A stretch of 64,000 bases of DNA from Rhodospirillaceae bacterium (GTDB lineage: Bacteria; Pseudomonadota; Alphaproteobacteria; Rhodospirillales; UBA2165), in assembly GCA_947467145.1 (NCBI GenBank), contig CANIGJ010000002.1:13423-77422 (forward strand). The letters are read 5' to 3'. This document shows positions 36,301 to 45,300 of this stretch, one piece after another (the first letter of the stretch is position 1; each line of letters opens with the position of its first letter). The position numbers were made by a program.

Positions 36301-39300
36301 TCGAGCGGTCGTCCGCTCGATATCCACATGCGCACGATGTCGTAAATAAATGCAATCACGCCGAGATGCATGGAGAATTGGAAAGACACGGCATGAGCGT
36401 CGCGATAGCTTGAATAGACACTGCTCATCGCGGCGAGCAGGATCGGCCAGCCGTTGTTGTAGCTCGGCAGGTGATAATCCATCAGGTCTGAGCGATAGTG
36501 GTCGGCAAGATAAATCTGCTTGGTCAGGTTGAGCCAGCTCGCGGTTTCGTCACCGAGGTACGGTTGATAGGCGATGCCGCCCCGGCTCGCCGCGACGGCA
36601 AAGAACAAAGCCGTCAGCACAAATACGGGATGGACCAGATCGTGTGCCGCCGGCCGCCGATCAGGCCGCAACAAAGCGGCGACCAATCCCACGAGACCGA
36701 TAGCCAGGAGCGCCCATGTCAGCATGCTGAGGGGTAGCCCGAAGGCGACGTTCCCGAGGAACAGGTATATGACGACGAGATATCCGGCGAGGGCGAAGCG
36801 TGCTCCCAGCCAAAGCCCTGAAGCTGCGGGCGCGGGCAGCCAAACCGCGATACCGAGCAGGACGCCAAACTGGCACAGGATATCGATCATGCCCGTCCGT
36901 CAGGTCAAAAGCCGGCCGGCATAATCTCGATGCCATTCGCACGGATCAAGGCGGAAGAGTTCAAGGAGCGCCGGCGCGATTTCCGTAACGAGGATATCCT
37001 GCCGGCTCGTTTGAATTTTCTGACCCTTGCGCCAGACCATGAACAGCCCTTCCTCGGCATGATGTGCGGTGGATTGTTCGTTGGTTTCCGATTGCCAGAC
37101 ATAGTCGTGGGCGCGTTCGGCAAAGTCGGCGCGGTCGCGATGCCGGATCGTGGCGTTGCGGTCGTGTTCCGCCGCAGGCGGAAGAATCAATTCCAGGAAC
37201 AATTGCTGTCGCCGCTGCTGACAGAAAAACACCGACGAGCCGTCGGACCATTCGAGGCCGCCAATCACCGCGGCATGCCGTGCTGCGTCCTCGCTGCTTG
37301 CGCAATCGAGGGTTAGGTCCGGGTTCATTTCATAATGTACGTGAACCTTGGTGAGACCCAGTCGTTGGAAGAAGCGGTCGGCATTCTCAAAACGAATGAC
37401 TGGATTATGAATTTCCGAGACCGGATCGTAGGGTCGTTGGCCGAGCGCTGAGCCGATGACCAAGATATCGTCGTTGGACAGCGTATCCATCGCAAGTCCC
37501 ACCAACTGATCGGTCCAGACATAGGCTCGTTCTATCTTGTCGGCATAGCCGGCTTCGTCGCGCTCGCGTTCGGTCACCGTGCGGTAAAAACGCCGGTCGG
37601 TTGAGCTCAGGTCGCGTGAAAACCGCTCTGGTTCGCTGGCCCGCCAATATCGATGCTGGAAATAGGCGATGTGGTTAAAATGGACTGTGGCAAAGTCGGG
37701 CCGCGTTTTGCGATAGATGCGCTCAAAGGCATCGGCAGTCAGAATGCTATGCACCATCGCGCGATCGGCTTTTGCCGTGCCGCCGCCGATCAGCTCGAGC
37801 GGAATCTGCGATAGCGTGCGTGCTGCGGCGTTCACGGAGAGCACGGTTCCGGTCGCGCACAGCAAATCGAGACCGGCGCGCACGAACGCCGTCCACCCGG
37901 TTTGTGAATAGTGATGTGCTCCGAACAAAAAGAAACGCTGGAGCGGACGTAATGCTTCGGGCACGCAATCGGGCGTGGAGGCGAGGGAATCGGGAACATA
38001 GAAACGCGCTTCGGGGCGGGGCGGGAAGGAGACCAGGCTGCCGAACACGCCATAGGAGCGGCCGGCCTGGGCGAGCGCATCCCAGACATACCGTCCCATT
38101 AAATGGCTCGTATCCTGGCCGAATCCGATCAGTTCGTGCGCGTTTGAGCGCATGCCCGTATAGACGCTGGACCACACGATCCATGGGCTAGTGTTGCGCG
38201 TGAAGCGAGGGTCCCCGGCGGAGACGTCGGGTATGTGGGTCCGCACGGCAGTGCCGTCGCCGAGGACGCGGGCGAAATTGGGCAACTTTCCGGTGGCGGT
38301 GAATTTCTCGACGAAATACGAGCTGGCTTCGTTGATTTCGAGGAAAAGTACCGCCATTGCCCCATATCCGGCCGCGCTGATGGCCGCTTCTAGCGCGTTT
38401 AACGTTATACTCGCAAGCAAATGGTGATCCTACAGTCATAATGGTTCTTTAACGGGGCACGTTGCAGACTATTCCTGGGCGAAGCCCTATTTAGAGTTCA
38501 CTCCGGGCAAAGACGGAACGAGACTTCCAGATGAAGGTTTTGGTGGCCGGCGGGTCCGGTTTTCTCGGCAGTTATGTGGTCGATCAATTGGTGGACCGCG
38601 GTCACGAGGTCACGATTTTCGACATGCGTGCGCCGTCGCCTGGCGAGCGCCAGGTCCGCTTCATCCAAGGCAATATCCTCGATGTGGCGGCCGTCAATTT
38701 GGCCGTGGCCGGCCATGAGGTGGTCTACAATTTCGCCGGGCTCGCCGATCTCAACGATTCCATCGACAAGCCGGTGGAAACGGTCAGCCTCAATGTCATC
38801 GGCAACCTGAATGTCCTGGAGGCGGCGCGCCACCATAAAGTGAAGCGCTTCGTCTACGCGAGTTCGGTCTATGTCTTTTCGCACAAGGGCGCCTTCTACG
38901 GCGCCTCGAAAAAGGCATCCGAACTGATCGTCGAGCAATATGGCGAACAATACGATCTCGGCTATACGATCATCCGCTATGGTTCGGTCTATGGCGAGCG
39001 GGCGGACGCCAACAACCGCATCTATCGCATCCTGCGTCAGGCCTTGCTGGAAAAGAAGATCTCATTCCCGGGCGACGGGTTGGAAGAGCGCGAATATATC
39101 CACTGCCGCGACGCCGCGAAATTGAGCGTCGATGTGATCGAAAGCGATGCCTATCGCAAACAGAACGTCATTTTGACCGGAGTCGAACGGTTCAAATATT
39201 CCGAGCTGCTCGCCATGATCCGCGAAATCATGAACGATGATGTGCACATCGAGATGTTGGGCGACGACTACAAGGGGCATTATGTCCTCACGCCTTATTC

Positions 39301-42300: not shown

Positions 42301-45300
42301 GGCTACTCGTCTGCTGGGATCGTCGAGGCCGTGGGCGCCGGGGTGACCGATCTGGCACCCGGCGATCGTGTCGCTTGCGCCGGTGCGGGTTATGCCAACC
42401 ATGCCGAGGTCGTGTGCGTACCGCGCAATCTCGTGGCGCCCATCCCGGACGGCGTGGCGTTCCAGGACGCCGCCTTTGTCACGCTCGGCGCGATCGCGCT
42501 GCATGGCGTGCGCCAGGCGAACCTCACGCTCGGCGAAAGCGTCGTCGTCATCGGCCTCGGCTTGATCGGCCAGCTTACGGTCCAATTGTGCGCGGCGCAG
42601 GGCTGCCGGGTGTTCGGCATCGATCTTGATCCGGCCAAGGTAGCGCTGGCCAAATCGCTCGGCATGGATGCCGGCTCGTCCGATGGTGACGCTACGCAAG
42701 CCGTACTGGCTTTCACGCGCGGGCGCGGCGCGGATGCGGTGCTTATCACGGCATCGACCAAATCCTCCGCCCCGATCGCGCAGGCGGCCGAACTCGCGCG
42801 GGACCGCGCTCGCGTCGTCGCGGTCGGCGATGTCGGGCTCGATGTGCCGCGCCGTCCCTATTACGACAAGGAAATCGATATCCGTCTGTCGCGCTCCTAT
42901 GGGCCTGGCCGCTACGATCCGGCCTATGAGGAAAAGGGCCGCGATTATCCGATCGGTTATGTGCGCTGGACCGAGAACCGCAATATGGAGGCGTTCCTCG
43001 ATCTGGTCGCCACCGCGCGCATCAAGATCGCGCCGTTGATCACCAAGCGCTTTCCCATCGAACAGGCGGCCGAGGCTTACGAATCCATTCTGGGTGGATC
43101 CGAGAACGTGATCGGCGCCGTGATTGATTACGATCCGGACAAGGTACAGGACACGACGGTGCGGCTGGTGGCGACACCGCGCCGCCGCACCGCGAATGAA
43201 GTCCGTATTGGGCTCGTCGGCGCGGGCGCATTCGCGCAATCGGTCCTGCTGCCGGCGCTGAAAAAAGTCGCGGGCGTGCATATCGCGTCGGTGACGACCC
43301 GGTCAGGATTGACGGCGCGTAACGTCGCCGATCGCTTCGGTGCCGATAGCGCGACATCGGACGCCCATGTCCTGATCGCATCGGCCGATGTCGATGCCGT
43401 ACTGATCGTGACCCGCCACGATACCCACGCGGATTACGTGGCCGAGGCCCTGGCGCACGGCAAACACGCCTTTGTCGAAAAGCCGTTGGCCGTCGATGCC
43501 GAGGGCCTCGCCCGCATCATCGCGGCACGCGCCGCCGCCGGCGGCGATGCCGCACCCTTGGTGCTGACCGGGTTCAACCGGCGGTTCTCGCCTCTGACCC
43601 GGACGTTGCAGAAACATGTCGCGGGCAAGCCGCTCGCCATGACCTATCGCATCAATGCCGGCGCGATCGCGGCCACAAGCTGGGTGCAGGATGCGGAAGC
43701 CGGCGGTGGGCGCATCGTCGGCGAGTTGTGCCATTTCATCGATACGATGCAGGCCTTGTGCGGCGCCGACATCACCGAAGTGCATGCCAGCGCGGTCGGC
43801 GATCAGTCGCGCCTGCCGGCCGACCCCGACAATCTCGCCGTGCAATTGCGCTTCGCCGATGGCTCGGTCGGAACGATCCTTTATGCATCGGGCGGTTCGG
43901 CCGATTTCGGCAAGGAGCGGTTGGAGGTCTTCGGCGGCGGAATCTCCGCCTCGATCGACAATTGGCGCAAGCTGACGGTGCGCGGGCCAAGTGTGCGGAT
44001 CAACGAGACGCGTTGGCTGTCGGCCGCCAAGGGGCATGACGAGGAAATGTCCGCGTTCATCGACGGCGTGCGAACCGGAACGAATCCGATCTCGTTCTCG
44101 GCCCAAGTGAACGTCACCTTGGCCACGTTCGCGGTTCAGGCGTCCTTGCGCGAAGGCGCGCCGGTTATCGTCGGCGACTAATTCGGCGACTAATCGAGAT
44201 CGAACGCGTTGCTGTAATCGAGCTTCAGCGCGGGATCCTGATCTTCCTTGACCAGCAGGTAATTGCCGACCGCGAGCAGATCGAGCTCGGTTCCCATGAA
44301 GCAGCGGAACGCATCCTCGGGCGTGCAGACGATGGGCTCGCCACGCACGTTGAAGCTGGTATTGGCGAGCACCGGGCAACCGGTCAGTTCCTTGAAGCGC
44401 GTTAGTAGTGCGTGATAGCGCGGATTGATCGCGCGATCGACGGTCTGTACGCGCGCCGAATAATCGACATGGGTGACGGCGGGGATATCGGATCGCACGA
44501 TATTGAGCTTGTCGATGCCGAACAGTTTCTTCTCGTCCTCGCTCATCGCGCGCTGGCGCTTCTTATGAACGTCGGCAACCATCAGCATGTAGGGGCTGTC
44601 GCAATCCATGTCGAACCAGTCCGCGACATCCTCGCGCAGCACCGAGGGTGCGAATGGGCGGAAGGATTCGCGATATTTGATTTTTAGGTTCAACGTCTTC
44701 TGCATCGCGGGCGAGCGCGCATCGCCGAGGATCGAGCGGTTACCGAGCGAGCGCGGGCCGAATTCCATGCGGCCCTGGAACCAGCCGACGGCCTTTTCGG
44801 ACGCCAGGCCCTGGGCGATGCGCTCGATCAGTGCCGCATCGTCCAAGCGTGTGAATTTGGCGCCGGCGCGCGTCAGCCGATCGACGATTTCGTTATCGTT
44901 GTAATCGGGCCCGAGGTAGGAGCCGCTCATGCCGTCGGCCTCATTGGCGCGCTGGCGTGGCTGGCCCTTGTACAGATGATAAGCGGCAAGTGCGGCGCCG
45001 ACCGCGCCGCCGGCATCGCCCGATGCCGGCTGGACCCAGATATTGTCGAAAGCGCCGTCGCGCAGCACCTTGCCGTTCGCGACGCAATTGAGCGCCACGC
45101 CGCCGGCGAGGCACAGATTCCTGAGCCCTGTCTCCTTGGCGAGCGAACGGGTGAGCCGCAACACGACTTCTTCGGTGACCGCCTGGATCGAGGCGGCGAG
45201 GTCCATGTCGCGATCCGTCAACAGGGAGTCCGGATCGCGCGCCGGTGCGCCGAACAGCTTGTCGAACTTGTCGTTCGTCATCCGCAAGCCGGTGCAATAA

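Follow-up and report, generated by a model that had tools for sequence, protein, structure and literature searches.

A 64,000-nucleotide stretch of a Rhodospirillaceae bacterium genome (GenBank assembly GCA_947467145.1, contig CANIGJ010000002.1, positions 13,423 to 77,422 of the forward strand; hereafter the window) carries, within a polysaccharide gene cluster, a five-gene operon in which the gene for an HddA-like sugar kinase overlaps that for a Nudix hydrolase. In the current study, we describe this operon, compare it with related metagenomic loci (designated by L and a number), and weigh explanations for the absence of the enzymes that would be expected to activate the kinase product. Five tightly packed plus-strand open reading frames (ORFs) occupy positions 38531–44181, as identified by ORF calling and Pfam:

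38531–39451, plus strand: SDR1, a short-chain dehydrogenase/reductase (SDR) of 306 amino acids (aa), Pfam Epimerase/GDP_Man_Dehyd
39455–40393, plus strand: SDR2, 312 aa, Pfam Epimerase/GDP_Man_Dehyd
40403–41419, plus strand: HddA-like GHMP kinase, 338 aa, Pfam GHMP_kinases_N and GHMP_kinases_C
41385–42008, plus strand: Nudix hydrolase, 207 aa, Pfam NUDIX
42022–44181, plus strand: bi-domain oxidoreductase, 719 aa, Pfam ADH_N/ADH_zinc_N and GFO_IDH_MocA N and C

A preliminary description of this DNA had claimed a five-gene plus-strand operon with junctions of 3 nt, 9 nt, an overlap, and 13 nt, encoding two extended SDRs, a GHMP kinase, a Nudix hydrolase, and a fusion of a medium-chain dehydrogenase/reductase (MDR) with a Gfo/Idh/MocA oxidoreductase; the ORF coordinates (junctions of +3, +9, −35, and +13 nt, in order) and the Pfam assignments agree with it on both counts. 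The start of the Nudix gene is ambiguous, with in-frame ATG codons at 41385, 41397, and 41409 that all overlap the kinase stop codon (41417–41419), giving an overlap of 35 nt from the first and of 23 or 11 nt from the second or third; many homologues of the Nudix protein are 199 aa long, compared to the 207 aa called here. Identical gene calls for all five ORFs were obtained in at least five independent metagenome assemblies, and the cassette is kept in two further lineages, L092 and L181, at 56–92% protein identity, which argues that the five ORFs are real genes under selection. The preliminary description had suggested looking for the kinase–Nudix–bi-domain order in other genomes, and in these two lineages the full five-gene set does recur. 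The five genes thus form a real operon. A consensus scan found promoter-like and terminator-like sites inside the operon at no more than the frequency expected from shuffled sequence. Downstream, the neighbour is convergent, the end of a carbamoyltransferase gene lying 8 nt from that of the operon, and upstream the operon is preceded by the following region:

38421–38530: divergent intergenic region of 110 nt between a minus-strand gene for a 506-aa protein and SDR1, the presumed promoter region of the operon

No sigma-70 match was found at 38421–38530 in the same consensus scan, and the promoter is placed there from the gene layout alone.

SDR2 matches PDB entries 6vo6 and 6vo8 (E = 8.2e-115, 54% identity, 309 aa ungapped), which are presumably Cj1427 of Campylobacter jejuni, the depositor's name matching the genome annotation. 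Cj1427 is a GDP-heptose C4-dehydrogenase whose tightly bound NADH is recycled by alpha-ketoglutarate (PMC10680097). The protein carries the motifs GGAGYLGS (GxxGxxG) and YGRTK (YxxxK), and 20 or more of the kinase loci described below have a homologue of it (56–75% identity); it is SDR2, and not SDR1, that travels with the kinase. By sequence, SDR2 is therefore a predicted Cj1427-like nucleoside diphosphate (NDP)-heptose C4-dehydrogenase and conserved partner of the kinase family, and the two constitute a co-inherited pair, in loci whose kinases share 51–63% identity among themselves. SDR1 contains the GGSGFLGS and YGASK (YxxxK) motifs and lacks the TDE dehydratase motif; it matches Pfam Epimerase (E = 4e-44), its nearest PDB entries are GalE-type enzymes (E ~1e-21), and its homologues were found only in L092 (87%), L181 (86%), and L155 (60%). 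It is probably a GalE-like NDP-sugar epimerase/reductase and is a candidate C4 reductase or epimerase. For the kinase, a member of a family of at least 8000 proteins, the best NCBIfam match is HddA (NF049969; 149.6 bits, cutoff 600), and the nearest PDB entries are the HddA-type kinases 3k85, 4usk/4usm, and 4n3o (E = 1e-33 to 1e-42); judged by these scores, it is HddA-like and not a curated equivalog.

The Pfam domains of the bi-domain protein cover residues 85–300 (the MDR-like half, in which no clear catalytic-zinc motif was seen by eye) and 394–675 (the Gfo/Idh/MocA half). Its PDB and NCBIfam matches include inositol dehydrogenases, UDP-GlcNAc 3-dehydrogenase, and sugar 3-ketoreductase, and it is 57–62% identical to proteins of Algihabitans, Micavibrio, and Desulfoferula that bear the NCBI name "bi-domain-containing oxidoreductase", a family of at least 8000 members. 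The usual neighbours of this family are Epimerase_2 (UDP-GlcNAc 2-epimerase), an AsnB-like amidotransferase, a heparinase/ulvan-lyase-like protein, and a family 2 glycosyltransferase (GT2), a setting that is one of nucleotide sugars (UDP-sugars), and the predicted function of the protein is that of an NDP-sugar dehydrogenase or ketoreductase. Compared with those cassettes, the two-domain architecture is the same, whereas here the protein has been recruited next to a putative heptose kinase and a Nudix hydrolase without any of its usual partners.

In the Nudix hydrolase, the Nudix box (G92-x5-E98-x7-R106-E107-L108-x-E110-E111-x-G113-L114) is intact, and it is invariant across 20 members of the family. 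The AlphaFold2 model (pLDDT 89) was matched by Foldseek, with a probability of 1.0, to NudE, Thermus ADP-ribose pyrophosphatase (ADPRase) and Ndx2, a Bdellovibrio NDP-sugar hydrolase, and NUDT5; TM-scores (query/target) were 0.70/0.77 for NudE (1vhz), 0.77/0.86 for Ndx2 (2yvm), and 0.73/0.82 for 5c7t. Model and matches together give a two-domain fold, comprising an N-terminal beta-sheet domain and the Nudix domain. Sequence similarity is low: identity to the nearest solved relatives is approximately 18–25%, PDB sequence matches are weak (E = 2e-8 or worse), and the sole NCBIfam match, to NudE, scores 40.8 bits where the cutoff is 169, so that no curated equivalog model applies. The Gmm/WcaH family does not appear among the NCBIfam, PDB sequence, or top Foldseek matches. 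Taken together, sequence and model place the protein in the two-domain ADP-ribose/NDP-sugar pyrophosphatase group (NudE/NudF/NudK/Ndx2/NUDT5), and not in the Gmm group. Within that group, NudK (YffH) is a GDP-mannose pyrophosphatase, and NudK-type enzymes share the two-domain, ADPRase-like architecture. The preliminary description had likened the protein to WcaH/Gmm, a comparison that is apt as operon logic but not as a family assignment. Nudix enzymes in general split nucleotide sugars into a nucleoside monophosphate (NMP) and a sugar 1-phosphate (PMC7729866). The subfamily is small: at E ≤ 1e-30, a search among 1.84 billion gave about 194 representatives (some 200 clusters at 50% identity). 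A scan of genome contigs with the Nudix alignment, keyed to the generic Nudix-box pattern, gave mostly unrelated Nudix genes, the best at 38% identity.

The genes that would be expected to act with an HddA-type kinase were sought with Pfam on every plausible ORF of the window and with probes drawn from related loci—an HddC-like hidden Markov model (HMM), ManC, and GmhA, together with an E. coli GmhB sequence—on all ORFs of at least 50 aa. Neither an NTP_transferase (PF00483, the HddC/ManC type) nor a SIS-domain isomerase (the GmhA type, also by the GmhA probe) was found in any plausible window ORF, and no GmhB-type phosphatase was detected in window ORFs by Pfam or the GmhB probe; the HddC-like HMM had no match in the window even at E < 10, and the ManC probe was likewise negative. 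Among the Pfam-less proteins, hhalign and hmmsearch --max revealed no cryptic nucleotidyltransferase, at a sensitivity that corresponds to the family level, since the CTP_transf_3 control was also missed. The sole nucleotidyltransferase in the window is of another kind:

63250–63960, minus strand: PseF-like cytidylyltransferase, Pfam PF02348 (CTP_transf_3), E = 6.5e-23

This protein scores 159 bits against the NCBIfam PseF model, below its cutoff of 205.7, and by family it would act on ulosonic acids rather than on sugar 1-phosphates. The 10 kb past the 3′ end of the window contain no PF00483 gene; they encode methyltransferases, a formyltransferase, a deacetylase, a second CTP_transf_3 protein, a HAD hydrolase, and a NeuB that also has weak cupin-type Pfam matches. 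Thus, the absence of HddC, GmhA, and GmhB from the window, as previously described, was confirmed, and the nearby 3′ flank, where an activating gene would have changed the picture, offers only the second CTP_transf_3. The broader statement that the cassette lacks a nucleotidyltransferase is right for the HddC type but not in general, because PseF-like CTP_transf_3 genes lie at 63250–63960 and just outside the window.

To place the operon among its relatives, metagenomes were scanned with the kinase alignment, yielding 80 loci with kinases 51–60% identical to that of the window; genes were called, neighbours clustered, and clusters annotated, and the 13 loci flanked by 8 kb or more on both sides are referred to as well flanked. 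The kinase is recurrently accompanied by an SDR (47 of 76 loci), a B12-radical SAM protein (42 loci), a split transketolase (N-terminal half in 32 loci, C-terminal half in 31), a DegT aminotransferase (26 loci), and, within five genes, an HddC-like PF00483 protein (21 loci). Of the 13 well-flanked loci, 10 have an HddC-like PF00483 gene, and GmhA-like and GmhB-like genes occur in 11 and five kinase loci, respectively. This co-occurrence with HddC-, GmhA/GmhB-like, and SDR2 genes argues that the kinase family serves as the functional HddA of a widespread, uncharacterized NDP-heptose tailoring cassette. Its canonical form is a string of radical SAM, kinase, SDR, the two transketolase halves, DegT, HddC, in some cases GmhA, and SDR2 (L097:8457–17250, L104:1501–10221, and L119:8369–17110), with L104 reading radical SAM–kinase–SDR–transketolase N–transketolase C–DegT–NTP_transferase–SIS–SDR2; such a cassette probably makes a methylated and/or two-carbon-branched amino-heptose. 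The window kinase is 57–60% identical to the kinases of these three loci, in which GmhA and HddC lie in one string. The complete five-gene combination, with SDR1 and the bi-domain protein, was found only in the lineages of the window, L092, and L181.

The kinase–Nudix pair itself recurs in rearranged settings, the paired kinases being 56–63% identical to one another. In L008 and L093, the order is B12-radical SAM–kinase–Nudix followed by a protein of ~1100 aa (L008:10657–13917, L093:5795–9097) that has no significant Pfam match and a faint GT1-like signal (E = 0.01), whereas L094, L120, and L136 read NTP_transferase–kinase–Nudix. In L009 (7589–9763), and likewise in L010 and L011, the Nudix gene is directly preceded by that of a 724-aa protein in which a B12-binding radical SAM domain is joined to an NTP_transferase domain; this arrangement suggests that the radical SAM enzyme works on a nucleotide-linked substrate. 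Another fusion, with the NTP_transferase domain at its C-terminus, is found at L106:12974–14788. Altogether, there are eight contexts in which the Nudix subfamily and an HddC-like gene or domain share a string: L120, L136, L145, L094 (partial, at a contig edge), L106 and L009–L011 (fusions), L162 (split ORF), and L012. The Nudix hydrolase is thus not a replacement for HddC. In seven other contexts (the window, L092, L181, L008, L093, L151, and L006) no HddC-like gene is in view, although in L093 a ManC gene lies 3.5 kb downstream. L012, from a metagenome-assembled genome (MAG) of the Rhodospirillales, was rejected as a related cassette, as it shares with the window only a carbamoyltransferase/SxtJ pair and a distant NTP_transferase–Nudix pair.

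Among the well-flanked kinase loci, HddC is present in all four with the Nudix gene and in six of the nine without it, so that there is no anticorrelation of the kind that would mark the Nudix hydrolase as an HddC substitute. The subfamily is present in 7 of the 80 kinase loci, and the same core gene set exists with it (L145 and L162, both followed by glycosyltransferase genes and an ABC-2 transporter) and without it (L097, L104, and L119); the Nudix reaction is therefore an optional step and not an obligatory one. A role as a stand-in for GmhB was rejected, as the chemistries differ (pyrophosphate as opposed to monoester) and a GmhB-like ORF and the Nudix gene occur together in L151. One member of the subfamily, protein P0379 (575 aa), is fused at its N-terminus to a PAS-HisKA-HATPase histidine kinase; another, at L006:8649–10594 in a MAG of the Bryobacteraceae, is encoded by a gene that overlaps the stop codon of a PAS/sigma-54 activator gene and has a GT9 (heptosyltransferase-family) gene 1.6 kb downstream. 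These arrangements hint that a regulatory or pool-controlling role fits the protein better than a biosynthetic one. Literature searches for Nudix enzymes in heptose or GHMP-kinase clusters gave no relevant study. A different and weakly related Nudix protein (30.7 bits to the family HMM) is encoded between SDR and transketolase genes at L161:1893–2489, in a locus whose kinase cassette has no HddC-like gene within 10 kb.

Several systems resemble the operon in part. The colanic-acid GDP-fucose operon gmd-fcl-gmm(wcaH) likewise has a Nudix gene among SDR genes of an NDP-sugar pathway, where it is dispensable for the pathway chemistry; unlike the window protein, whose nearest solved relatives were given above, that enzyme belongs to the Gmm family. 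With the metagenomic cassette of B12-radical SAM, kinase, split transketolase, DegT, and HddC-like genes, the window shares the kinase (51–60%), SDR2 (56–75%), and, for a minority of its loci, the Nudix subfamily as well, whereas it has SDR1 and the bi-domain protein in place of radical SAM, transketolase, aminotransferase, and nucleotidyltransferase genes. A further parallel is the capsular GDP-heptose pathway of C. jejuni, which comprises GmhA/Cj1424, HddA/Cj1425, GmhB/Cj1152, HddC/Cj1423, the C4-dehydrogenase Cj1427, epimerases, and C4-reductases. Like it, the window combines an HddA-like kinase and a Cj1427-type SDR (54% to 6vo6) in one operon of a polysaccharide locus, with an additional SDR that could act as a reductase and, presumably, at least one pathway gene outside the cluster. 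Unlike it, the locus lacks HddC, GmhA, and an RmlC-like cupin epimerase, its kinase lies below the HddA cutoff and matches solved HddA-type kinases only at E ~1e-33 to 1e-42, and it has a Nudix hydrolase and a 719-aa bi-domain oxidoreductase with no counterparts in C. jejuni.

With moderate confidence, we therefore read the operon as a trimmed and rearranged member of the widespread, uncharacterized family of NDP-heptose-modifying cassettes, set in a surface-polysaccharide locus, with its activation genes unlinked and with the Nudix hydrolase as an accessory NDP-sugar pyrophosphatase; it would be a variant of the C. jejuni-type GDP-heptose modification pathway rather than a new kind of pathway. 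From gene content, homologies, the intact Nudix box and fold, and co-occurrence, we infer the following substrates, step order, and nucleotide, and the physiological role of the Nudix enzyme. The kinase would phosphorylate heptose 7-phosphate at O1, and a GmhB-type phosphatase and an HddC/ManC-type transferase encoded outside the locus would then yield an NDP-heptose, probably GDP-heptose. SDR2, as a Cj1427 orthologue, would oxidize C4 to give a 4-keto sugar, and SDR1 and the bi-domain enzyme would carry out further reduction, epimerization, or oxidation of the nucleotide-linked sugar; a neighbouring carbamoyltransferase/DUF5989/SxtJ trio may carbamoylate the sugar or the polymer, and the glycosyltransferases and Wzy-like and PMT_2-like proteins of the cluster would use the product. 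The Nudix hydrolase would convert NDP-sugar to NMP and sugar 1-phosphate as an optional accessory, probably limiting or proofreading the NDP-sugar pool, for example by removing mis-activated NDP-hexoses or stalled intermediates in the manner of wcaH/gmm in the GDP-fucose operon or, by a similar logic, of NudK.

Of the two fates that the preliminary description had offered for the kinase product, activation by an enzyme encoded elsewhere is favoured, because SDR2 matches 6vo6, presumably Cj1427, and would need a nucleotide-linked substrate; the usual UDP-sugar setting of the bi-domain family and the HddC-like gene in 10 of the 13 well-flanked relatives also support an NDP-sugar. Unlinked genes are the most likely explanation for the missing transferase, and a pathway gene outside the cluster has a precedent in gmhB (Cj1152), which is unlinked in the C. 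jejuni capsular pathway (PMC10680097). Several points weigh against this interpretation. HddC, ManC, GmhA, and GmhB were unseen in the 64 kb, in the 10-kb 3′ flank, and in the visible parts of L092 and L181, and activation by trans-encoded enzymes is assumed. As the kinase lies far below the HddA equivalog cutoff, its heptose specificity is read from the context of its relatives. The identification of 6vo6 as Cj1427 draws on the depositor's name and is presumptive. Finally, the seven HddC-less contexts leave room, statistically, for a compensating role of the Nudix enzyme.

The second fate, direct use of a sugar phosphate, for example by the KdsA-like synthase, turns on genes elsewhere in the cluster. 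The relevant block is as follows:

54068–55081, minus strand: radical SAM protein (Pfam)
55103–55528, minus strand: stand-alone CBS-domain protein
55500–56384, minus strand: KdsA, passing NF003543 (338.5 against 242 bits) and TIGR01362 (322.9 against 314 bits)

Since KdsA passes the curated cutoffs for Kdo8P synthase, its expected substrate is arabinose 5-phosphate, and it is not divergent from canonical Kdo8P synthases. In the window, this block lies 10–11 kb from the cassette on the opposite strand. Downstream of the five genes of L181, on the same strand and separated by short gaps or overlaps, come genes for a hexapeptide acyltransferase, KdsA, CBS, radical SAM, and a 477-aa protein, and in L092, KdsA adjoins the carbamoyltransferase/SxtJ block of the cassette. 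The linkage does not extend beyond one clade: none of the 80 other kinase loci has KdsA, and NeuB is present in one of them. The block at 54068–56384 is thus a separate Kdo-type module that is linked to the cassette within the clade of the window, L092, and L181, and direct use of the kinase product has clade-restricted synteny in its favour but is contradicted by the wider kinase family.

Other explanations start from the missing genes or from the Nudix enzyme. The absence of GmhA and GmhB from the window, L092, and L181 would be accounted for if the kinase and SDR2 of this clade acted on another free sugar (a hexose, 6-deoxyhexose, or pentose) to give its 1-phosphate, a route on which neither enzyme is needed. 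Fucokinase and galactokinase are relatives of the HddA-type GHMP kinases, the window kinase falls short of the HddA cutoff, and window-type kinases (identity ≥74%) are set off by a gap from the remaining family (≤68%); however, the similarity of the kinase to those of the loci with GmhA and HddC, that of SDR2 to an enzyme presumed to be a heptose-specific C4-dehydrogenase, and the fact that C. jejuni likewise keeps gmhB outside its cluster make a non-heptose substrate unlikely. Alternatively, the cassette may modify an NDP-sugar from which the Nudix enzyme then strips the nucleotide, a role comparable to that of PseG, LegG, or NeuC in the synthesis of nonulosonic acids, or of FomD in that of fosfomycin; the sugar phosphate thus set free (or, via a phosphatase, the unphosphorylated sugar) would be condensed with phosphoenolpyruvate by KdsA or NeuB and re-activated by a PseF-like enzyme to give an unusual higher-carbon ulosonic acid. 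The co-directional run of L181 into KdsA-CBS-radical SAM, the position of KdsA beside the carbamoyltransferase/SxtJ block in L092 and within the same cluster in the window, and the fusion of B12-radical SAM and NTP_transferase ahead of the Nudix gene in L009–L011 would fit a transient nucleotide handle. The cluster, moreover, has NeuB, HAD hydrolase, and CTP_transf_3 genes but no recognizable NeuC/PseG/LegG-type hydrolase, and L182, with a kinase 65% identical, has NeuB and CTP_transf_3 without PF00483 within 10 kb. Against this stand the restriction of the KdsA linkage to one clade, where it may reflect descent of the whole polysaccharide locus, the absence of KdsA and near absence of NeuB from other kinase loci, and the expected arabinose 5-phosphate substrate of the window KdsA; in addition, the Nudix enzyme would release a 1-phosphate, whereas KdsA-type enzymes use omega-phosphorylated free aldoses, it is optional in otherwise similar cassettes, and L145 and L162, by running into glycosyltransferases and an ABC-2 transporter, imply an NDP-sugar donor as the end product. 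We regard this route as rather unlikely.

That the Nudix hydrolase replaces HddC, either by working in the pyrophosphorolysis/synthesis direction or by nucleotidyl transfer to the kinase product, is highly improbable. In its favour, the kinase and Nudix genes lie side by side and overlap in five contexts that show no HddC-type gene (the window, L092, L181, L008, and L093), and NUDT5, for which the synthesis/pyrophosphorolysis direction has reportedly been observed, is among the structural neighbours; on the other hand, the same subfamily shares eight contexts with an HddC-like gene or domain, in many cases as its immediate neighbour, all hydrolytic Nudix-box residues are invariant, and kinase loci with neither an HddC-type gene nor the Nudix gene exist (L117 and L127). 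We know of no bacterial Nudix enzyme that serves as a biosynthetic sugar nucleotidyltransferase. Nor is it probable that the protein is a mere passenger, that is, a housecleaning ADP-ribose/ADP-sugar pyrophosphatase or regulatory domain with no specific tie to the sugar pathway. The closest solved relatives, ADP-ribose pyrophosphatases and NudE, the member fused to a PAS-histidine kinase, and the overlap with a sigma-54 activator gene in L006, a locus without a sugar-activation cassette, would suit such a protein, but at least 12 of 13 examined contexts lie inside NDP-sugar operons, beside the kinase, SDR2, or a nucleotidyltransferase, and this setting holds across rearranged gene orders and down to Nudix identities of 38–47%. 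It seems distinctly unlikely, considering the window clade by itself, that either the nucleotide is a transient handle, with the heptose product passing through KdsA/NeuB and the PseF-like enzyme into an unknown C10-type ulosonic acid, or the Nudix enzyme performs the missing nucleotidyl transfer; were one of these true, the kinase–Nudix pair would represent a new route of heptose into glycan building blocks.

If the favoured interpretation of an NDP-heptose cassette with unlinked activation genes is correct, the operon adds one more modular NDP-heptose tailoring pathway, which is useful for annotating environmental polysaccharide loci and is unsurprising in itself. The distinct small Nudix subfamily is recurrently wired into HddA/HddC/Cj1427-type operons and may proofread or control the flux of rare NDP-sugars. 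Beyond the window, the kinase and its Cj1427-like SDR mark a very large uncharacterized cassette family (with B12-radical SAM, split transketolase, and aminotransferase) whose products are probably branched or methylated amino-heptoses not yet described chemically.

Immediately downstream of the operon, and convergent with it, lie three genes on the minus strand:

44190–46025, minus strand: NodU/CmcH-type carbamoyltransferase, Pfam Carbam_trans_N and C
46038–46190, minus strand: DUF5989, a small membrane protein of 50 aa that travels with the carbamoyltransferase (calls/Pfam in L002, L003, and L092)
46207–46629, minus strand: SxtJ (Pfam), a small membrane protein that travels with the carbamoyltransferase

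The carbamoyltransferase, which probably decorates the same polysaccharide, adjoins the cassette in L092 and not in L181; together with SxtJ, it also occurs at L012:1529–3971, an unrelated locus in the Rhodospirillales MAG, with 71% and 48% identity, respectively. On the other side, the divergent 506-aa protein (36900–38420, minus strand) has one N-terminal hydrophobic segment and a marginal match to PF01663 (23.5 bits against a cutoff of 23), the type I phosphodiesterase/nucleotide pyrophosphatase family, and may be a phospho-substituent transferase.

The cluster also holds glycosyltransferases and Wzy-like and PMT_2-like membrane proteins. A long minus-strand polysaccharide operon (51656–63960) continues past the end of the window (L178:1–10000) and encodes the PseF-like cytidylyltransferase, several methyltransferases, an MsbA-like ABC transporter, a PFTS-motif protein, a 2-oxoglutarate-Fe(II)-oxygenase-like protein, KdsA, the CBS protein, the radical SAM protein, a TIGR04326-like protein, and a GT2; in appearance, it combines two ulosonic-acid pathways with heavy methylation. 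At the cluster edge, a bifunctional class-II aldolase/short-chain dehydrogenase (RhaD-like) is encoded at 31488–33482 on the minus strand and at L092:1–1520, and a homologue (37% identity) lies inside the kinase cassette of L106 (4524–6491), beside a PNP_UDP_1 phosphorylase-family gene; its link to the cassette may be functional or due to chance.

The G+C content falls from ~0.60–0.67 in the housekeeping half of the window (1–34000) to ~0.55–0.61 over most of the polysaccharide cluster (34000–64000), with an exception of 0.65 at 42–44 kb, in the bi-domain gene, a pattern that would fit a cluster acquired horizontally or assembled as a mosaic. By Pfam, the 5′ half is unrelated housekeeping DNA. 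It includes, at 14566–16176, 18438–19703, and 23241–25025 on the plus strand, genes for two tetratricopeptide repeat (TPR) proteins with GT41 (O-GlcNAc-transferase-like) domains and one TPR-methyltransferase, which flank that of a 1186-aa hydantoinase/oxoprolinase fusion.

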